Notes under the pieces: generated by a model
Database searches by the model: none
What the model saw: the letters and a program-made list of their open reading frames with translations, nothing else
Told to the model about the DNA's origin: nothing
Shown here: piece after piece, positions 14,406-23,167 of the stretch
How the letters are laid out: each line of letters opens with the position of its first letter
Position numbering within the stretch: the first letter of the stretch is position 1
Made by a program: the position numbers and the translations under genes
IMG/VR virus record: IMGVR_UViG_2795385758_000004
Coordinates: 22,292-86,291 of that record
Length of the DNA stretch: 64,000 nt
Strand: one strand, 5' to 3'
Source: a virus
Taxonomy: Duplodnaviria > Heunggongvirae > Uroviricota > Caudoviricetes

Positions 14406-14653
14406 CCCCCGAGATAATCCAGGCGCTCGGCGTGGCCATCGCTGCGATTCTGACCGCGTGGCAAGCAATGACATCGCGGAAGGTTCGCGAACTCGAGGCC
14501 CGGATCAAGGCGGTCGAGAAGGAACGCGACCAGTTCCGCGACAAGCTCAGGGCCGCGGTGCGACACATCCGCGACTGGATGGGATGGGCCATGCACCACG
14601 CGCCCGGACAGGCCCCACCGCCGCTGCCGACAGAACTCGTCGACGAGGTGTAG
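14402..14653 (+). CDS. second lysis-cassette membrane protein (1 TM + coiled coil)
   Basis: GTG overlaps the upstream TGA (GTGA). One TM segment (ALGVAIAAILTAW) then a charged coiled-coil region. Homolog at 23753..24004. Confidence 0.5.
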   Translation: MTPEIIQALGVAIAAILTAWQAMTSRKVRELEARIKAVEKERDQFRDKLRAAVRHIRDWMGWAMHHAPGQAPPPLPTELVDEV

Positions 14654-14680
14654 CCCCCCGACTCGGAGTTAGACAGCTTG

Positions 14681-14727
14681 CCCAAAGGTGCCCCCGCTCA
14701 AACACACTGAGCGGGGGCACCTTTGGG
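14681..14727. terminator. bidirectional stem-loop terminator between convergent operons
   Basis: Perfect 20-bp inverted repeat cccaaaggtgcccccgctca / tgagcgggggcacctttggg around a 7-nt loop. Lies between the end of the + strand lysis genes and the end of the - strand toxin/immunity operon. Confidence 0.6.
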
Positions 14728-14733
14728 CGTTCG

Positions 14734-15006
14734 CTACTGCGAGTATCCGGGGCCGTAGGTGGTCGTCCCGGGTGGCACTATAGACTGCCCGATAGCCAGT
14801 ACTAGAATGAAGACCACAGATCCCGCCGCGGCGGCCAGCATCCCGATCGAGAAGGGGCGGGACTTCGGCGGTATGTAAGTTCCTATGCCGACTAGCACGA
14901 GAAGTACCGGCGTGAACATGTAGAGGTAGACCGCCAGGGAGAAAGCGGCAGACCCGGCCAGCAGACCGGCAATAGTCAGGTATCGGTTCATGTGATCGCC
15001 ACCCAA
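14734..15006 (-). CDS. small membrane protein (second immunity candidate)
   Basis: 90 aa with 2-3 hydrophobic helices. Lower GC than the surroundings. Last gene of the - strand toxin operon. Confidence 0.4.
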   Translation of the reverse strand: MGGDHMNRYLTIAGLLAGSAAFSLAVYLYMFTPVLLVLVGIGTYIPPKSRPFSIGMLAAAAGSVVFILVLAIGQSIVPPGTTTYGPGYSQ

Positions 15007-15269
15007 AATATGCCCAACAGGTACGTGATGGCACCCGGAAGCGGGGACAGCATTATCCCGCGTGCGTAGTCGCCCAATTGAGGGGACAGCGATTTCATCG
15101 CGAACCCGACAATCGGAAGAACGATGAACAGGCCGAGGATCGTCAAATAGATTGTGGTGCTTTCCAACCCGCCATGGGCCACGAAGAATGACGCGAGCGC
15201 GCCGTAGGCGACAGCAGACGCTATTGCTGCCGTGAAGACGACCCGCTTGTCACTACTGGTGTCATTCAT
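14988..15269 (-). CDS. membrane protein, candidate immunity protein for the adjacent toxin
   Basis: ATG lies 4 nt after the toxin stop. 93 aa with three hydrophobic segments. Lower GC than the surroundings. Confidence 0.45.
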   Translation of the reverse strand: MNDTSSDKRVVFTAAIASAVAYGALASFFVAHGGLESTTIYLTILGLFIVLPIVGFAMKSLSPQLGDYARGIMLSPLPGAITYLLGIFWVAIT

Positions 15270-15273
15270 CGAA

Positions 15274-16596
15274 TCACCCTACTGGGACTGTGGGAATGCG
15301 GTCAGTGGGTCCGAGCTGCGTTCCGGGGGTTGCGATCGGTATATCCCCTCGCGCGGCCGCAGTCGGTACGTGGAATTGGTTGACCAGTGACGCGTCGCCT
15401 TCCGAGTGCGACATGGGCAGTTGAAACAGCGGCCCGAATTCGTTGTGTCCCAGGCTTGGCATGTACTGAACCGCAGCCTGGTCGCCGTGGTAGATCTCCA
15501 GCGCAGGAAAGCTGGTGACCGTTCCGCCGACCTGAATGCCCGAATCGGTTGGCACTAGAGCTATATCGCCTTTCACGGTGTGAAATGACCCCTGGCCTGA
15601 TATCAGGCCGCCCGGTAGGAATCCATCCGCGGACTCGTATTGGATGTTGAGGGCATTACCCTTTTGCTTCACCGAGACATCAGGGTTGGTGCCTACTGCC
15701 ACTGCGCCAGTATCAGCATTGACCGACGGATTCTGGCGGTGGATCACCGCGCCGTTGTCGAAGTCTACGAGCATGCTCACGCGAGAGTGCTCGGGTGACG
15801 CATTCCGGTCGAAACCACGGTTATCGCCCCGGTCCTTGCCGAAGTTCCAGACCTTCTCACCGGGAATGAACGCGTTGATCTGCACCTGCCCTTTGCCCGG
15901 TTGCGGCTCAATCTTGGCAACCTTGATGTCGGACTCGACCCCCTTGTACTTAGGGTCATAGTTGTGCGCGTCCAGCATCGCCGCTGTGTGCCAGTCGGCG
16001 GGAGTTGTTGGCGCTCTTTTGAATACCTCTCGGAATGCAAACTCCTGGTTTTCGCGGGGCGACTTAATGCGGTCCAGCTCGCCGAGTATCCCGGTCATCG
16101 ACACCGGGAGTGACGATGGTTTCTCGTCACCGTCTGCGAGATTGACGGCGTGCGTCAGGGTGGCATCGGCGGCGTCACCGTCGGCCACGGCTCGCTTGAT
16201 CGCGTCGGTCAGCTCTGCCGCCTGCTGAGCCGCTTCCGGCTTGTCCGACAGCGGTTTTACCGCTCCGGTGGCGTAGTCGATCGAGAACTTGCCCCGTGCC
16301 TCGTTCTCGATCTTGCTCAGCTTGGCTTTGGCTGCCTCGAACTCGTCGGCCGCCTCGCGCATCTTGGCGGCCGCGGCCTGGCGCCCTTCGGAGTGGGTGC
16401 CGATGAGCTTGCCGAAGACTCCGAGCTCGGTGTCGGCGGTGGTGGCAGCGACCCCGGTCCAGTTGCCGACATGGGGCAGGTTGGGGAACGAGTTCTTGAT
16501 ATCGCTGAGCGAGGTCGCTTGCTTCTCCAGCGCCGCGGCGACATCGCGGATCATCTGGACGTCGACCTTCTTGAGATCCGCGGGGGTGAGTGACAT
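15274..16596 (-). CDS. polymorphic toxin with N-terminal WXG100-like (type VII secretion substrate) domain and an uncharacterised C-terminal domain
   Basis: 440 aa. N-terminal helical domain has NWTGVAAT, a W-x-G motif. Its start abuts the stop of the upstream WXG100 gene. The C-terminal roughly 250 aa matches nothing I recognise. Confidence 0.6.
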   Translation of the reverse strand: MSLTPADLKKVDVQMIRDVAAALEKQATSLSDIKNSFPNLPHVGNWTGVAATTADTELGVFGKLIGTHSEGRQAAAAKMREAADEFEAAKAKLSKIENEARGKFSIDYATGAVKPLSDKPEAAQQAAELTDAIKRAVADGDAADATLTHAVNLADGDEKPSSLPVSMTGILGELDRIKSPRENQEFAFREVFKRAPTTPADWHTAAMLDAHNYDPKYKGVESDIKVAKIEPQPGKGQVQINAFIPGEKVWNFGKDRGDNRGFDRNASPEHSRVSMLVDFDNGAVIHRQNPSVNADTGAVAVGTNPDVSVKQKGNALNIQYESADGFLPGGLISGQGSFHTVKGDIALVPTDSGIQVGGTVTSFPALEIYHGDQAAVQYMPSLGHNEFGPLFQLPMSHSEGDASLVNQFHVPTAAARGDIPIATPGTQLGPTDRIPTVPVG

Positions 16597-16917
16597 CTAC
16601 ATCACCGATGCGTCGGGATAGAGGCGAGTCTGAAAGATGTTGATCTTCGATTGCTCGTCGGTGGTCGTGAATGCATGCCCACAGGTGTCGAACGCGTCTC
16701 GATAGTGGGTCAGCTCGTTCTCGATATGCCGGGATTGCGCCGCCCAATCGGTCATCTTTGCCCGCAGCGCCGCAGCCGACGAGCCAACCCACCCGGTAGA
16801 CGCAGCCTCGATCGCTGCGTTGGTAGCCGCGTGGGTCTCGATGTGCTCAGCGCGGTGCATGTCCATGCGATCGGCTGACATCCGTAGACGCTCGGGCTCG
16901 ACGCTCATTGCGTCCAT
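16597..16917 (-). CDS. WXG100 (ESAT-6/CFP-10-like) family protein
   Basis: 106 aa helical protein carrying TGWVGSSAAAL, a W-x-G motif, at the expected position. Confidence 0.7.
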   Translation of the reverse strand: MDAMSVEPERLRMSADRMDMHRAEHIETHAATNAAIEAASTGWVGSSAAALRAKMTDWAAQSRHIENELTHYRDAFDTCGHAFTTTDEQSKINIFQTRLYPDASVM

Positions 16918-16965
16918 GTCGTACCCCCTCGGTGGTAGCTGAGTGGACTATACGATAGGCCGGTT

Positions 16966-17208
16966 CTAGCGGCCACGGGTTGCCAGCTCGGGGCATTCAG
17001 ACATGACTTCCCGATCGACGGCAGCTTTCGCGGCGGTGTAGTTGGGATAGATCGGCTGATCCTCTGAGAACGTCAGGGCTACGTCGACGGGCCCCATGCC
17101 AGGGTATTTGCGCAGCATGTCGCACACAATTCCAGTTGGCCGAGGGCTGGCGTGCGCAATTAGTGCGCACCCGAGGGTGATCATCACGGCCAGCATGAGC
17201 GCCCTCAT
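16966..17208 (-). CDS. small secreted protein (signal peptide)
   Basis: N-terminus MRALMLAVMITLGCALIAHA is signal-peptide like. 80 aa. Confidence 0.45.
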   Translation of the reverse strand: MRALMLAVMITLGCALIAHASPRPTGIVCDMLRKYPGMGPVDVALTFSEDQPIYPNYTAAKAAVDREVMSECPELATRGR

Positions 17209-17618
17209 TCGATGTGCCCCGGCTCGCCGTCAGGGATGGCGTCGGCCCAGACGATGTAGCGTTCCCGCTGGGTAACCGTGGTCGGGTCAGAGTAAGACGT
17301 GGATAGCTCGCAGCCATCGGCGTGGTAGCGGCCGTAGTCGTCGATCCGCCCCTGGCACTTAGTCCTATTGCCACCGATATGGGTGAAAGTGCGGTATCTC
17401 ACCCAAGCAATGTTGCCGCTGCCACTTACTTCCACCGGGCTGTCACATAGCTGACGGATGCTGGGATTCAGCCCGAGAATAGCGTCGCGCTGGCAGTGGA
17501 AGATCTCCGGTAGTCCCATATCGGAAGGGTCGCCGGGCGCCGCATTGGCGGGCGTGGCGAGCGCGATAGCAGCCAATGGAACCATGAGCGGCAATGCCCA
17601 CTTTCCGATTCGCATCAT
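17205..17618 (-). CDS. secreted Cys-containing protein
   Basis: Signal peptide MMRIGKWALPLMVPLAAIALATPANA. 137 aa with 4 Cys. ATGA overlap with the downstream gene. Confidence 0.45.
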   Translation of the reverse strand: MMRIGKWALPLMVPLAAIALATPANAAPGDPSDMGLPEIFHCQRDAILGLNPSIRQLCDSPVEVSGSGNIAWVRYRTFTHIGGNRTKCQGRIDDYGRYHADGCELSTSYSDPTTVTQRERYIVWADAIPDGEPGHIE

Positions 17619-17787
17619 GCGCGGATCGTACTTCGATCGGCTAGTTTCCGGCCAGGAATGCCACCAGCCGATCTACCTTGCCGATTCCGTCGAAATGACG
17701 CGGCGCGCGTGAAGTGTCCCGGCCGCCAGCCCACAGCACTACGCCCGTCTGGCTGTAGGCGACGCTGGCATAGGCGGGAGTGCCGGG

Positions 17788-17822
17788 CAGTCGATACACA
17801 CACTCACGGTGTGTATCGACTG
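17788..17822. repeat. perfect 14-bp inverted repeat hairpin 3' of integrase A
   Basis: cagtcgatacacac actcacg gtgtgtatcgactg. Located 87 bp beyond the integrase A stop. Possible terminator or protein-binding site. Confidence 0.5.
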
Positions 17823-17908
17823 CCCTGTCACCGTCATTGGAAATCCAGCCGTGCTGACGTGCAGCGGCGTCGACCTCGCGCTGGCCGGTCATCGCGCGAA
17901 CGGTTCGA

Positions 17909-18808
17909 TCATGTTGATTGCCTCTCGATTGCGCTGGCTGAACGCCGGCGGGTCGCTGCCTTCTTGGTTCGAGGTGAAGCGCACAGCCGTGACGCCAGTG
18001 CGTCAACGCCAACCGCACCGCGCCGCGTGTTGTAGCCGAGGTAAACCATTGTGGTAGCAAGGCTTTGGTGCCCAAGGGCTTCTTGGATATACCGGATATC
18101 GACGCCAAGCTCGTTGAGCGCGGTTGCGAAGCGGTGCCGCAACGTGTGCAGCGTGTACGGCAGCTTGAGGCCCGCCAAGAAGTCCGAAGACACCACCGAC
18201 ACGTAGTTCGGAGTCACCTGCCCTCCAAGCGGACGGCGGAACATCGGTCCAGCCTGGCTGAGCTGAATGGCCAGCCGTGCCTGTACCTCCGGCGGGACAC
18301 GAACGATGCGTTGCTTTCCACCCTTGCCATGCACGGTCAGGAACGCGCCGCCATTCTCATCGGGGCGAAAGTCGGTGCGAGACATCTGCGCGATCTCCCC
18401 AGCGCGCAGACCGCAGTATCCGGCCAGTAGTAGCCACGCGTGCATGTCTGAGCCGGCGGGGGCGGCCAGCAATGCCAGGCGTAGGTGATCCTCGGGAATG
18501 GGACGCGGCATCCGGCGTTTGAGCTTGGGCTGTACGAGGCTGGCGGTTGGGTCCTCGTCGATGAGCCTGCCGCGGTGAGCCCATCTGTAGAACGCGCAGA
18601 CGTGCGAGGTGTAGGTCTGAATACTAGAAGGGCACACTCGAAGCGACCGTTGCCATGCTTCGAGCTGCGCGGGGGTTGCATCTAGGAGGGGGGTATCACC
18701 GAGCCAGCGCGCGAGCCGGTCTATCTGGCCGAGCCTGTGCTCGATCGTCTTCGGGGTCATGTTGCGCAGACGCAGGTGTGCTGTGAACTCGCTGAGGGTG
18801 TTTTCCAT
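17909..18808 (-). CDS. int: tyrosine recombinase / phage integrase (Xer-like, 299 aa)
   Basis: N-terminal SAM-like core-binding domain. C-terminal catalytic motifs HTLRHRFAT and ALGHQSLATTMVYL carry the R..H..R..Y signature. About 75-80% identical to integrase B. Confidence 0.85.
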   Translation of the reverse strand: MENTLSEFTAHLRLRNMTPKTIEHRLGQIDRLARWLGDTPLLDATPAQLEAWQRSLRVCPSSIQTYTSHVCAFYRWAHRGRLIDEDPTASLVQPKLKRRMPRPIPEDHLRLALLAAPAGSDMHAWLLLAGYCGLRAGEIAQMSRTDFRPDENGGAFLTVHGKGGKQRIVRVPPEVQARLAIQLSQAGPMFRRPLGGQVTPNYVSVVSSDFLAGLKLPYTLHTLRHRFATALNELGVDIRYIQEALGHQSLATTMVYLGYNTRRGAVGVDALASRLCASPRTKKAATRRRSASAIERQST

Positions 18809-18846: not shown

Positions 18847-19012
18847 TTGTTGCAGGTCAGATGCTTTCCTGAGCGGAAAACGTGACCCGAACTCGCGCGA
18901 CGCCCGATGCGCTTATACGGTTCATACTCACGAGTATGAACCGTATAAGTCCGCGTTCCGGCGCGCCAGCTCAGGTCACGGTTTCCGCTCGGGGAAGCAA
19001 CTGACCTGCAAC
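18847..19012. repeat. large imperfect palindrome between divergent integrase genes with perfect 18-bp core inverted repeat (candidate shared att core / recombinase site)
   Basis: Outer arms ctgacctgcaacaa are identical on both sides. Inner arms are about 85% identical. The core cttatacggttcatactc ac gagtatgaaccgtataag (18912..18949) is a perfect inverted repeat. Confidence 0.55.
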
Positions 19013-19056
19013 AAGTCCACCCGTTCGGTTTCCTAGCAAAAGGACGGGCTGTACTT

Positions 19057-19947
19057 ATGTCACCTGTGAATAATGACACTGTCGTCTCAGAGTTTGCTCG
19101 TTATCTGAAGCTGAAGAACTTCACAGCTAAAACGATCGAGCACCGCTTGGGGCAGATTGCTAGATTAGCTAGATGGCTTGGGGAAACATCTTTGCTGGAG
19201 GCCACCCCGGAGCAGCTTGAGGCCTGGCAGGGTTCGTTGCGGGTGTGCCCGTCTAGCATCCAGACCTACACGTCGCATGTTTGCACCTTCTATCAGTGGG
19301 CCTACCGATGTGGGCGCACGAGCGAATACGTCGCAAAAGACTTGGTGCAACCGAAGATTCAGCGCCGTATGGCCCGGCCCATCCCCGAGGACCACTTGCG
19401 GATCGCGCTGACCGGCGCGCCTGTCGGGACTGACATCCATGCATGGCTGCTATTGGCCGGATACTGCGGTCTGCGCGCTGGGGAGATCGCGCAGATGTCA
19501 CGCAACGACTTTCGCCCCGATGAAGGCGGCGGCGCCTTCCTGACCGTGCACGGTAAGGGAGGGAAGCAACGCATCGTCCGAGTTGCCCCCGAGGTCATGC
19601 AACGTCTGGCAATTCAGCTGAGCCGACCCGGCACCATGTTCTGCCGTCCCCGCGGCGGGCCAGTCACACCCAACTACGTCTCGGTCGTGGGTGCGGAATT
19701 CCTAACCAATCTCGGGCTCCCGTACACGCTGCACACCCTGCGACACAGGTTCGCGACCGTGCTCGCCGACGAAGGCGCGGACCTCCGCGATATCCAGGAA
19801 TTGATGGGGCACGAGAGCCTGGCGACCACCATGCGGTACCTCGCTTACTCGACCCGACGTGGAGCGGCGTCCGTCGACTCGCTCGCGTCGCACTTGTGCC
19901 CCTCGCGGTCGTCGGCATCGAGAATGGAACAGCGCAGTCACAAGTAG
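19057..19947 (+). CDS. int: tyrosine recombinase / phage integrase (Xer-like, 296 aa)
   Basis: Homolog of integrase A with the same catalytic motifs (HTLRHRFAT, LMGHESLATTMRYL). Transcribed divergently from integrase A. Confidence 0.85.
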   Translation: MSPVNNDTVVSEFARYLKLKNFTAKTIEHRLGQIARLARWLGETSLLEATPEQLEAWQGSLRVCPSSIQTYTSHVCTFYQWAYRCGRTSEYVAKDLVQPKIQRRMARPIPEDHLRIALTGAPVGTDIHAWLLLAGYCGLRAGEIAQMSRNDFRPDEGGGAFLTVHGKGGKQRIVRVAPEVMQRLAIQLSRPGTMFCRPRGGPVTPNYVSVVGAEFLTNLGLPYTLHTLRHRFATVLADEGADLRDIQELMGHESLATTMRYLAYSTRRGAASVDSLASHLCPSRSSASRMEQRSHK

Positions 19948-20304: not shown

Positions 20305-20401
20305 CAATAACCCTGCGCATGCCGCCGAAACGTGCAGGTCGGATGGGTATCGCTTCGCACTCCTATTGCGGTGGCAAACTCGGCGGCGATACCATCCGGC
20401 A

Positions 20402-20713
20402 ATGAGTGGAGGGGTCCTCGGGGTTTCGCCAGAAGAGTTGCAGCGGGTTTCGCGATTGGTCACCGCGACCGCAGGCGGTTTGGCGACGGAGCTGGATGCC
20501 CTCGACGCCGAGGTGTCGCGGTTTGTCGGCTCCGGTTGGTCTGGTGGGTCGGCGAGCGCGTTCACCACGCGGTGGTTCCAGTGGTACGAGGGCGCCAAGC
20601 TGGTACACCAGGGCCTTGCGCAGATGGGCAGCTTGTTGGCGAGCACCGGGGATGCGTTCGTGGGCCAGGATGCGGCCACCGCCGCCAACGTCAACGCCGC
20701 TGACGGAATGTAG
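20402..20713 (+). CDS. WXG100 family protein (EsxB/CFP-10-like)
   Basis: 103 aa carrying SGWSGGSASAF, a W-x-G motif. First gene of an Esx-like pair. Confidence 0.65.
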   Translation: MSGGVLGVSPEELQRVSRLVTATAGGLATELDALDAEVSRFVGSGWSGGSASAFTTRWFQWYEGAKLVHQGLAQMGSLLASTGDAFVGQDAATAANVNAADGM

Positions 20714-20722
20714 GGGGAGAAG

Positions 20723-21013
20723 ATGTCAGGTGAATTCGGCGTTGTGCCCGACGAGCTCATGCGGATCATCGAACGCATGGCAGAGGTTGAGCAGCGAGCC
20801 GAGGCGTCGATAGCGGCCATGGACACCGAGGTTCACAACCTGCACGCCACCTTCACAGGTGAAGCTGCCACGGCCCACACGCAGGCGCACGAGAAGTGGG
20901 CCAAGGGCGCCGAGCAGATGCGCGAAGCGCTCAAGGGCCTACGTAGCGCGAGCCACGCCGCGCACGGCAATTACACAGGCGCCGCTGCCAAGAACATGCA
21001 GAACTGGGCATAG
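20723..21013 (+). CDS. WXG100 family protein (EsxA/ESAT-6-like partner)
   Basis: 96 aa helical hairpin protein. Strong ribosome binding site GGGGGAGAAG. Carries KWAKG. Immediately downstream of the EsxB-like gene. Confidence 0.6.
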   Translation: MSGEFGVVPDELMRIIERMAEVEQRAEASIAAMDTEVHNLHATFTGEAATAHTQAHEKWAKGAEQMREALKGLRSASHAAHGNYTGAAAKNMQNWA

Positions 21014-21017
21014 CGCG

Positions 21018-22670
21018 ATGGCACCCCCGATTCATGTCGACCCGGTTGCCCTCGATGGCGCCGGTAGAACGGTCTCCAGCTCGGTGGGCGGGTGGGGCTC
21101 TGCGCTGTCGGCATTGCAGTCGGCGCTGTCGAGTTCGGCCGGTATGGGTGGGGATGACCCCGCCGGGATCGTGTTCGCGCGATCGTATGACTCGTCAGCC
21201 AAGGAACTCCTTGAGGCGATGGTGGACGTGTCCAACGGTGCCGGGCGGGCCGCTGACGGCATCCGGGCCTCGGCGACCAACTATTCGCGTGCCGAGGTGG
21301 CATCCAACATCGACGGCAAGGGCGGCGACCCACTGCCCGCCGCCTCACCCACTCCCGCGGTGAAGGCCGGGACCCCACCGTCTGCGGTGGGTAGCGATGT
21401 TGGCGACCCACCCGGTTGGTTCCTGGTGGAGCCGTTCATCGGAATGATTTGGCCCAATGGTGATTCGGCGAAGCTGCGCGCCGCTGGCGCCGCGTGGACG
21501 GCTGCCGGTGCGGCATTCACCGCTCAGCAGGCCGGACTAGCGGGGGCGCAGGCAACCGCGCAGGCCCAGCAGATCCCCGAAGGTCCCAAGATCGATAGCG
21601 CGTTCAAGACGATTGACGGTGCTGTCGGCGAGGTCGGCGGCATGTGCAGCACCATGGGCACCAAGCTCAACGACTACGCGGCCAAGATCGATACGGCGCA
21701 CGCATCGATACTGGACCTGTTGGCCCGCTTGGTAAATCCGCTGACCGGTGCCAAACAGGTCGTGGACTGGATTACCGGCGAAGACGACGACGAAATAAAG
21801 AAAATCGCCGCCGACATCCGCAACATCGTCAACCAGTTCAAGTCGGAAGTGCAGTCGCTCGCGCTGCTGCTGGCGCCGATCATCCAGGGCGCATCGATGG
21901 TCATCGACACCCTAAAGTCGTTGGTACAGATGCAGGTTGAGCTTTTCGGAAACGAGATATACAACACCGTGGCCCCGGTAGTGAACGCCACTGCATCCTT
22001 GGGGCAGGCCATGATCGACAACCCCGGCCAGACAATCCAGATGGCAGCTGGAGTCGGCATGATGGCGGTCGGCTACGACATGATGGCTGCGGCGGGCGTC
22101 GGTGAGGTCTTCACCGGTGGGGCCGCGACACCGGTCGCGGCGCCTGTCGCTGTTGCCGGGGCGGGCTTACTCGCTGGTGGCGCGGTCGTCGCCATACCGC
22201 CAGCCCTCGACCTCTCGAAAGAGGCTGCGGTCAACGGCGTGACGGTGATGGAGGCCCGGACTGGACGACCCGGCGAGGGCATCAACCGTGGCGACGACCG
22301 CGATTCCATCGGCACATTCACAGGCCGAGGCGGCACAGCCCGAGGATACGGTCGCCAACCAGAGGCAGAGGGTATCGATCGTTATCGGCGCGCTAACCCG
22401 GACGAATGGGTGAGCACTGAGCGTCGTAAGGCCAAGGTCGATGGGGTCGAGAATGGCCGCTACTACGATGGTTTGGCGCAGAAGTCAGACGGCACTTACA
22501 AAGGTATTGAGGTCAAATCCGGTGATGCCACACGCAATGCAGAGCAGCGAGCGTTCGACTCGGCCGTAACTCCAGAGAATCCGGCCTACGTTACGATCAC
22601 AAACAGGAGCGGGGAAGTCGAGACGGTGAAAGTCACTGAGGTAGAGGTAATTAAGGTGGCGGGCGAATGA
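21018..22670 (+). CDS. polymorphic toxin: N-terminal Esx/WXG-like secretion domain, Ala/Gly-rich linker, C-terminal putative PD-(D/E)xK-like nuclease domain
   Basis: ATG at 21018 lies 4 nt after the Esx gene stop. The track's upstream extension overlaps the Esx gene and was not used. The last roughly 120 aa are AT-richer and include SDGTYKGIEVKSGD, a D...ExK-like motif. The stop overlaps the start of the next gene. Confidence 0.6.
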   Translation: MAPPIHVDPVALDGAGRTVSSSVGGWGSALSALQSALSSSAGMGGDDPAGIVFARSYDSSAKELLEAMVDVSNGAGRAADGIRASATNYSRAEVASNIDGKGGDPLPAASPTPAVKAGTPPSAVGSDVGDPPGWFLVEPFIGMIWPNGDSAKLRAAGAAWTAAGAAFTAQQAGLAGAQATAQAQQIPEGPKIDSAFKTIDGAVGEVGGMCSTMGTKLNDYAAKIDTAHASILDLLARLVNPLTGAKQVVDWITGEDDDEIKKIAADIRNIVNQFKSEVQSLALLLAPIIQGASMVIDTLKSLVQMQVELFGNEIYNTVAPVVNATASLGQAMIDNPGQTIQMAAGVGMMAVGYDMMAAAGVGEVFTGGAATPVAAPVAVAGAGLLAGGAVVAIPPALDLSKEAAVNGVTVMEARTGRPGEGINRGDDRDSIGTFTGRGGTARGYGRQPEAEGIDRYRRANPDEWVSTERRKAKVDGVENGRYYDGLAQKSDGTYKGIEVKSGDATRNAEQRAFDSAVTPENPAYVTITNRSGEVETVKVTEVEVIKVAGE

Positions 22671-23167
22671 GTCTTGAGCGCAATGGTTTTCAGATGCATA
22701 CATACACTACCGACAAAGATTTCATTATGTGGATGGGCGCTGAGCCAGGGAAGGCGCACCGGCAGATCGAAATAAATATCAACTCGATCGGCGAAGATCG
22801 GGATGGTGTCGCAGACGTGGCGTTCTCGATCTATAAGGTCCCCGATGGCACTGAGTACGACGAGTTCCCATACCCTCATGAGTGGATTCAGACTTGCGGG
22901 GCCACCGCCGAGCGCCTGACCGTCGAAATCCGCCGGAAAGAGTCCGATGGCGTTCGGCGTATGTACACCATCGGACGGCCTTCTGCGGCAAATGAATCCG
23001 AGCAGTCAGAGACGGTCTACAACGGCGACAGTGAGTACCTGGTACGACCGTCAGAGGTCCTATCCGCCGCTGAAGCTATCGAGCTGTTCCAGCACTACTA
23101 CAACCACCTGGACGTTGCGCCGGGCTGGCACTTGCGCGAGCAACCCGAATTCGCCGACGCCGGGTAG
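22667..23167 (+). CDS. candidate immunity protein for the upstream toxin
   Basis: ATGA start/stop overlap with the toxin. 166 aa, acidic. Noticeably lower GC than the surroundings. Confidence 0.5.
   Translation: MSLERNGFQMHTYTTDKDFIMWMGAEPGKAHRQIEININSIGEDRDGVADVAFSIYKVPDGTEYDEFPYPHEWIQTCGATAERLTVEIRRKESDGVRRMYTIGRPSAANESEQSETVYNGDSEYLVRPSEVLSAAEAIELFQHYYNHLDVAPGWHLREQPEFADAG

Follow-up and report, generated by a model that had tools for sequence, protein, structure and literature searches.

Prophages of Mycobacterium abscessus carry polymorphic toxin–immunity (PT-Imm) cassettes, of which 21 arrangements have been described beside attachment junctions; they are lysogenically expressed, and export by ESX-3 or ESX-4 is presumed (Dedrick et al. 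2021, PMC8092301). The class was later renamed PEST, for phage-encoded ESX-secreted toxin (mSystems 2023, PMC10654092). Toxicity and immunity were shown in M. smegmatis for two cassettes other than the one described here, those of prophiGD43A-6 and prophiGD17-1, and related prophage cassettes were toxic there without their immunity gene (PMC10654092). Here we analyse a cassette at positions 14734-16917 of a 64,000-nt stretch of viral DNA (IMG/VR record IMGVR_UViG_2795385758_000004, positions 22,292 to 86,291); "the window" below means this whole stretch, and positions count from its first letter. The cassette belongs to the PT-Imm/PEST group and is identical to genes 61-64 of Mycobacterium phage prophi62-3. 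It is therefore already known, both as a class and as an exact sequence, and its kind is not new. On balance we read this prophage-borne cassette as encoding an ESX-exported polymorphic toxin that acts at the membrane or envelope and is neutralised by a two-protein membrane immunity; that it is exported by ESX, is toxic, is countered by these two proteins and acts at that site are points that we infer.

With the published PEST cassettes the locus has in common a short gene for a WXG100 protein, a large protein whose N-terminus is of WXG type and whose C-terminus varies, a downstream immunity candidate, and a site at an integrase and attachment junction. The published cassettes have three genes, or four where there are two WXG genes, and a single immunity gene, whereas a second membrane gene, gp61, is present here; the C-terminal domain here also differs in having no assigned toxin motif. 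A comparable locus is that of EatA, an ESX-4-dependent arabinanase toxin of M. abscessus that kills other mycobacteria and has accessory proteins and a lipoprotein inhibitor (Nat Commun 2026, PMC13444075). In that study 47% of the surveyed M. abscessus toxins of EatA-like loci had no predicted function, and transmembrane or lipoprotein immunities went with toxins predicted to act extracellularly (PMC13444075). The EatA-TapA1/A2-EatI locus resembles ours in its small helical accessory genes, the elongated helical N-terminus of its toxin, its downstream protective gene and its host species (PMC13444075). It differs in its payload, which here is not GH183 and has no glycoside hydrolase match by sequence or fold, in having two Tap proteins where we find one WXG100 partner, and in having a secreted lipoprotein inhibitor, EatI, where we find two polytopic membrane candidates.

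Membrane-acting toxins paired with polytopic membrane immunity proteins form a further group for comparison. They include TspA-TsaI and TelE-TipE of the type VIIb secretion system (T7SSb) and the pore-forming colicins with their Cei/Cai-type immunity; their toxin domains are built of helices and bear hydrophobic hairpins or glycine zippers. Our locus is like these in that a small, nearly all-transmembrane immunity-type protein is encoded directly after the toxin, which implies the cytoplasmic membrane as the site of action. Unlike them, it has a payload that is predicted to be beta-rich and contains no hydrophobic stretch, and it has two distinct immunity-type genes instead of one. No sequence or fold relationship to these toxins was found.

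Window positions 14500-17700 are 100% identical to prophi62-3 (MW584177, host M. abscessus GD62), and prophi108-1 is matched equally well. In the MW584177 record, gene 64 is labeled 'WXG motif protein', gene 63 'polymorphic toxin protein with WXG motif', gene 62 'polymorphic toxin immunity protein' and gene 61 'membrane protein'. A tyrosine integrase (Pfam Phage_integrase, E 7e-18) and the attachment end lie 1-2 kb beyond the cassette, near the right end of MW584177, and the cassette is transcribed leftward. A preliminary description, made from the sequence alone, had assigned the cassette to a prophage, and the identity to prophi62-3 together with the adjoining tyrosine integrase and attachment end bears this out. 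Its interpretation was already public, having been given both by the GenBank annotators and in published work (PMC8092301, PMC10654092). The block from the integrase to gp61 recurs unchanged beside different lysis cassettes in six further M. abscessus assemblies.

The cassette consists of four translationally coupled minus-strand genes, with open reading frames (ORFs) and junctions read from the sequence. Its features are given below, the gene numbers being those of MW584177; models are from AlphaFold2 (AF2), with confidence as the predicted local distance difference test (pLDDT).

16597..16917, minus strand: gp64, WXG100 (ESAT-6-like) partner, 106 aa, with W52-V-G (Pfam WXG100; MW584177 annotation)
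15274-16596, minus strand: gp63, toxin, 440 aa, containing NWTGVAAT, with W46-T-G (ORF; MW584177 annotation)
16126..16596, minus strand: gp63 residues 1-157, N-terminal helical secretion domain, with its WXG at W46-T-G
16063..16125, minus strand: gp63 residues 158-178, linker, predicted disordered (pLDDT <50 in the full-length AF2 model)
15277..16053, minus strand: gp63 residues 182-440, C-terminal domain, two conserved helices and then a beta-rich part
14988..15269, minus strand: gp62, 93 aa, polytopic (3 transmembrane spans), first immunity candidate (hydropathy, junction; MW584177 annotation)
14734..14991, minus strand: gp61, 85 aa, membrane protein (2-3 transmembrane spans), second conserved partner (junction, hydropathy)
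16966..18808, minus strand: co-travelling block upstream with gp65, gp66, gp67 and the tyrosine integrase, context outside the cassette proper (Pfam; GenBank annotation)

The gp64 stop codon TAG directly abuts the gp63 ATG, the gp63 TGA is followed by TTCG (4 nt) and then the gp62 ATG, and the gp62 TGA overlaps the gp61 ATG as ATGA. A longer ORF is available for the last gene (14734-15006, 90 aa from a TTG start). The start of gp61 is most likely the ATG (14734-14991, 85 aa) and not the upstream TTG, because GenBank and independent gene calls in the six other assemblies use the ATG. A Kyte-Doolittle scan gave 3 hydrophobic spans in gp62 and 2-3 in gp61. All the minus-strand ORFs of the preliminary description (106 aa with TGWVG, 440 aa with NWTGVAAT, and two small ones) were recovered at the coordinates above, as were the 4-nt gap between the toxin stop and the first membrane gene and the multi-transmembrane character of the two small proteins. 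The membrane genes had also been called richer in AT than their surroundings; that holds for gp62 (GC content 0.564) and is marginal for gp61 (0.601), against 0.640 for the window. GC at third codon positions (GC3) is 0.71-0.73 in the membrane genes versus 0.75 in the toxin gene, so their lower GC comes mostly from codons for hydrophobic residues, and we rejected a separate origin for gp62 and gp61 as an explanation of it. The cassette genes are genuine and do not reflect chance ORFs: the four-gene block is kept in a Mycolicibacterium chromosome and its last three genes across dozens of Mycobacteriales genomes.

Polymorphic toxins, in the sense of Zhang et al. 2012, are said to carry one C-terminal domain on varied trafficking N-termini, with an immunity gene directly downstream. 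Among 93 full-length relatives of gp63, its C-terminal domain, hereafter the payload, lies behind WXG100, PPE, EspA/EspE, EspB-PPE, DUF4226, T7SS_signal and Hydro_N_hd N-termini. Proteins P0085 and P0132 carry it behind signal-peptide-like N-termini with low-complexity linkers. P0158, a metagenomic sequence, has it immediately after the closing part of an RHS core (TIGR03696, E 7e-5; motif NNPMTKSDPTG); this match falls short of the curated cutoff, since P0158 is a fragment. Identity to the window protein is uneven along the chain, and in either direction: 70% in the N-terminal and 36% in the C-terminal part for P0105 and 82% and 49% for P0026, compared with 31% and 67% for P0014 and 35% and 58% for P0004. 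In these sequences the N- and C-terminal halves of the toxin assort independently, which is the defining behaviour of polymorphic toxin domains. The shuffling, the WXG100 partner and the Esx/PPE-like toxin N-terminus agree with the earlier reading of the locus as a WXG100-linked polymorphic toxin cassette.

A genome scan gave 114 payload loci, 80 of which were kept; they come from Mycobacterium, Mycolicibacterium, Mycobacteroides, Nocardia, Gordonia, Rhodococcus, Williamsia and unclassified actinomycete metagenome bins. A pair of small ORFs, each with at least two transmembrane spans, follows the toxin gene in 55 of these 80 loci, and in all but two of the paired loci (53/55) the first ORF begins no more than 30 nt from the toxin stop. 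Iterative searches found a gp62-like gene in the first position in 42/80 loci and a gp61-like gene in the second position in 45/80; the two co-occur in 42 loci, a gp61-like gene being present wherever a gp62-like gene is. By these counts gp61, annotated only as 'membrane protein', accompanies the toxin as regularly as does gp62, the annotated immunity gene. The two are separate families: the idea that they are paralogues found no support (hhalign probability 2%). Pairs in Nocardia, Gordonia and Rhodococcus keep the architecture and, weakly, the sequence, with an hhalign probability of 66% for the first-position proteins.

The module also occurs outside prophages. In a Mycolicibacterium chromosome it lies between helY and a 5'-3' exonuclease gene, in the order WXG100 gene (102 aa), toxin gene (434 aa), 91-aa membrane protein gene beginning 4 nt past the toxin stop, and 87-aa membrane ORF; the last two products are 32% identical to gp62 and 38% identical (E 9e-14) to gp61. 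Across relatives the membrane proteins diverge faster than the payload domain (median identities of 34% and 39% versus 54%) and co-diverge with it (Spearman 0.54-0.56, over pairs that are not independent). Payloads linked to RHS or to a signal peptide, too, have a small polytopic membrane ORF downstream of them. The membrane ORFs persist when the delivery domain differs; it is thus the payload, and not the ESX delivery domain, that they accompany, which favours a role in immunity over one in export. The preliminary description had proposed the two membrane proteins as immunity candidates, a proposal strengthened by finding small polytopic ORFs after the payload whatever its delivery domain.

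At the other end of the cassette, gp64 matches Pfam WXG100 (E 2.5e-9, 37.7 bits, cutoff 27.3) and the NCBIfam model TIGR03930 (E 8.8e-11). The gp63 N-terminus is helical and Esx/PPE-like; alone it gives weak WXG100 matches (E 0.7 and 0.01), and a profile of the 93 relatives matched EsxB at E 1.2e-4, the N-terminus giving Esx matches among PDB sequences. Alignments of gp63 relatives lose register around residues 158-178. A gp64-like WXG100 partner is not constant in the family (7/80 loci); many loci have other small helical upstream genes or none. Among the relatives, many chromosomal loci have no small WXG100-type gene directly upstream (L004, L006, L015, L018 and L043 are examples), and those in Nocardia and Gordonia have a different small helical upstream gene of ∼106-129 aa. 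The upstream partner protein is far less conserved than the downstream membrane pair. In a few M. abscessus assemblies (P0211 and P0212, from the protein cluster of the window toxin), the toxin gene call covers just the last 274-276 residues. The WXG, gp62 and gp61 genes beside it are intact, and the short toxin may reflect a disrupted N-terminal secretion domain, or a mere gene-calling difference.

The C-terminal domain of gp63 had been described as matching nothing recognisable, and so it proved: residues 182-440 matched no Pfam, NCBIfam or PHROG model, and three profiles searched against PDB sequences gave chance matches only for this domain (NEDD1, designed Ig proteins). No recognised toxin family in Pfam (including its Ntox and Tox models), NCBIfam or PHROG matched the C-terminal domain of gp63 or of any of the 93 relatives, in which Pfam matches fell in the N-terminal domains alone. 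Searches of Pfam, PHROGs and NCBIfam with gp62 and gp61 likewise matched nothing. A word-indexed protein search found 13 relatives of the payload domain, and a profile run against 1.84 billion cluster representatives matched 282 clusters, counted at 50% identity, with E<=1e-3, 124 of them with E<=1e-30. A second protein search added relatives from Actinosynnema and Pseudonocardiaceae. By sequence, the payload domain constitutes an unnamed family, so far seen in actinomycetes only and mainly in Mycobacteriales. Its invariant or near-invariant motifs are N-x-F-I-P, G-D-N-R-G-F, P-E-x-x-R, D-x-x-N-G, R-Q-N-P-S-V and F-P-x-x-E-x-Y, and its invariant polar cluster comprises D258, N259, R260, E269, R272, D278, R287, Q288, N289 and E367.

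Remote homology searching and structure prediction, which the preliminary description had suggested for this domain, were both carried out and gave no family and a confident beta-rich fold. Modeled alone by AF2, the payload has a pLDDT of 82.4 and a predicted template modelling score (pTM) of 0.84, with two short helices followed by ∼15 beta-strands. The sole structural neighbour of the predicted fold is BAS0735 of Bacillus anthracis (PDB 3c5p), at 15-16% identity. This link was seen neither by sequence profiles nor by Foldseek, with which the payload model had no meaningful match in the PDB (TM-score ∼0.1), and a literature search for BAS0735 or 3C5P returned nothing relevant. The predicted payload fold is therefore shared with no characterised toxin. 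To read the conserved R, S, E and D residues as those of an ADP-ribosyltransferase, a nuclease or a glycoside hydrolase found no fold or profile support.

We propose the following mechanism for the cassette. Paired with the helical Esx/PPE-like N-terminus of gp63, gp64 would complete a composite signal for export through an ESX system of the host. The payload would be the last 260 residues of gp63, a beta-rich domain of the unnamed actinomycete family. gp62 and gp61, small putative inner-membrane proteins nearly without soluble loops and presumably co-translated with the toxin, would shield the lysogen. Because they have next to no soluble loops, they would have to meet their partner in or at the membrane, so the most likely target of the payload is the cytoplasmic membrane itself or membrane-bound envelope precursors, and probably nothing in the cytoplasm. 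It might act by permeabilisation or by attack on a lipid-linked substrate. Permeabilising toxins are the usual partners of polytopic immunity proteins, yet such toxins are helical and hydrophobic and this payload is not; an enzyme working on a lipid-linked or wall substrate would fit the invariant polar residues, yet enzyme toxins usually have soluble or lipoprotein inhibitors. A more elaborate version of this proposal, which we advance only tentatively and hold to be less likely true than false, is that the payload is the founding member of an uncharacterised toxin family, confined to actinomycetes (mainly Mycobacteriales), with a G-D-N-R-G-F / R-Q-N-P-S-V signature on a beta fold like that of BAS0735, which attacks the mycobacterial plasma membrane or membrane-bound envelope precursors by a mechanism unseen in other secreted toxins and whose neutralisation needs a two-subunit immunity complex of gp62 and gp61.

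Several points weigh against an ESX-exported, membrane- or envelope-directed toxin with a two-protein immunity. For this cassette, as for every member of the domain family, toxicity, export and immunity are all matters that we infer. On the export side, residues 84-89 of gp64 read F-T-T-T-D-E, giving FxxxD where a YxxxD/E export motif is expected (the Mycolicibacterium homologue, L002 3693-4001, carries Y-S-D-I-D at the same position); the gp63 N-terminus shows no clear YxxxD/E motif; and a gp64-like partner lies upstream in only 7/80 loci. On the immunity side, besides the 55 loci with a pair, 10/80 have no downstream membrane ORF and 9/80 have only one, the remaining 6/80 being loci where a contig edge was reached or no ORF was obtained, and the transmembrane counts come from a simple hydropathy scan. 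As for the payload, it has no recognisable catalytic or pore-forming signature, and its one structural neighbour, BAS0735, has no known function. It is beta-rich and without a hydrophobic segment, unlike the helical membrane-depolarising toxins that are usually paired with polytopic immunity proteins, and its invariant cluster of D, N, R, E and Q residues bears more resemblance to an enzyme or ligand site.

This last resemblance leads to the best of the alternatives, that the payload is not a permeabiliser but an envelope enzyme, acting on arabinogalactan, on peptidoglycan, or on a precursor linked to a lipid, for example lipid II or a sugar carried by decaprenyl phosphate, while gp62 and gp61 shield or alter the membrane-bound substrate or sequester the enzyme at the membrane. 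The polar cluster, from D258 to E367, lies within a beta-sandwich-like domain, the signal-peptide-like versions suggest that the payload works outside the cytoplasm, and there is the precedent of the ESX-4-dependent M. abscessus arabinanase toxin EatA (PMC13444075). Known toxins that are envelope enzymes, however, are countered by soluble or lipoprotein inhibitors, as by EatI, and not by polytopic proteins with minimal loops, and the payload has no glycoside hydrolase, lyase, amidase or phosphatase match in sequence or fold. We consider this alternative unlikely, at something like one chance among a handful.

A second alternative is that gp63 is not antibacterial at all. It would instead be an ESX-secreted effector or envelope protein, whether host-directed like CpnT/TNT or a beta-protein of the surface or outer membrane, with gp62 and gp61 serving its anchoring, insertion or export. 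This would suit a module that is fairly conserved (the 54% median identity of its C-terminal domain) in many Mycobacteriales chromosomes, non-phage contexts included, and the published account leaves the roles of PESTs explicitly unresolved (PMC10654092). Yet the payload is shuffled among unrelated delivery domains, the RHS core end among them, which is typical of toxin payloads; exchange of the ESX-type N-terminus for another leaves the membrane ORFs in place, which speaks against a role in ESX export; and the tight translational coupling of the small downstream genes is the classic layout of immunity genes. We regard this alternative as improbable. Still less credible is prophage defence against superinfecting phages (abortive infection or exclusion) by a gp63 killer restrained by the membrane proteins, which has in its favour a lysogen-expressed site beside the integrase and attachment junction, the usual place of mycobacteriophage defence genes (PMC8092301), and a mention among the possible PEST roles (PMC10654092), but which fits poorly with a module also found in non-prophage chromosomal settings and across genera, and for which secretion-type N-termini and a WXG100 partner would make no sense in an intracellular abortive-infection effector.

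The cassette is a deposited and annotated member of the prophage ESX-toxin cassettes, a group presumed to shape competition in M. abscessus, and perhaps its virulence. For one enzyme toxin, mycobacteria have been shown to kill one another in an ESX-dependent way (PMC13444075). What remains of interest in this already annotated locus is the unnamed and widespread payload family, its BAS0735-like predicted fold, and an immunity that appears to be bipartite and membrane-bound; these are leads, not findings. If the payload represents a new family of toxins aimed at the membrane or envelope, it would reveal another point at which the mycobacterial envelope is vulnerable.

Between the integrase and the cassette (window 16966-17618, minus strand) lie gp65 and gp66. 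The 137-aa gp66 has a signal-like N-terminus and matches Pfam CDGP (E 1.1e-8), and the 80-aa gp65 has a hydrophobic signal-like N-terminus with ...TLGC..., a possible lipobox. In other M. abscessus assemblies the two are found in a single block together with the integrase and the cassette.

Beyond the integrase, two prophages abut head-to-head in the window, at 18847-19014 (centre ∼18930). The prophi62-3-like element ends at ∼18942, and an element 100% identical to prophiCCUG48898T-1 / prophiGD51-1 begins at ∼18920 in the opposite orientation. Related tyrosine integrase genes diverge from the junction, at 17909-18808 (minus strand) and 19057-19947 (plus strand). There is no tRNA gene at the junction, which is marked by a perfect 18-nt palindrome (CTTATACGGTTCATACTC / GAGTATGAACCGTATAAG, 18912-18949) nested in a 56-nt, 86% inverted repeat (18847-18902 / 18959-19014). 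Back-to-back attR-type ends are not expected from ordinary integration, and could have arisen by inversion or recombination of related prophage ends, or be an assembly artefact.

On the far side of this junction lies a second WXG100-linked cassette (cassette B, 20366-23167, plus strand). It has two small WXG100-type genes (20366-20713 and 20723-21013), a toxin reading frame that extends to at most 603 aa, and, downstream, a gene for a soluble protein of 166 aa (22667-23167). The toxins of the two cassettes had been called unrelated, and BLASTP of gp63 against the cassette B toxin (20859-22670, plus strand) agrees, with E >1. The C-terminal end of the cassette B toxin (…YDGL…GIEVKSG…) may represent a restriction-endonuclease-type nuclease motif. 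GenBank labels this toxin a polymorphic toxin with WXG100 motif and the downstream protein its immunity protein.

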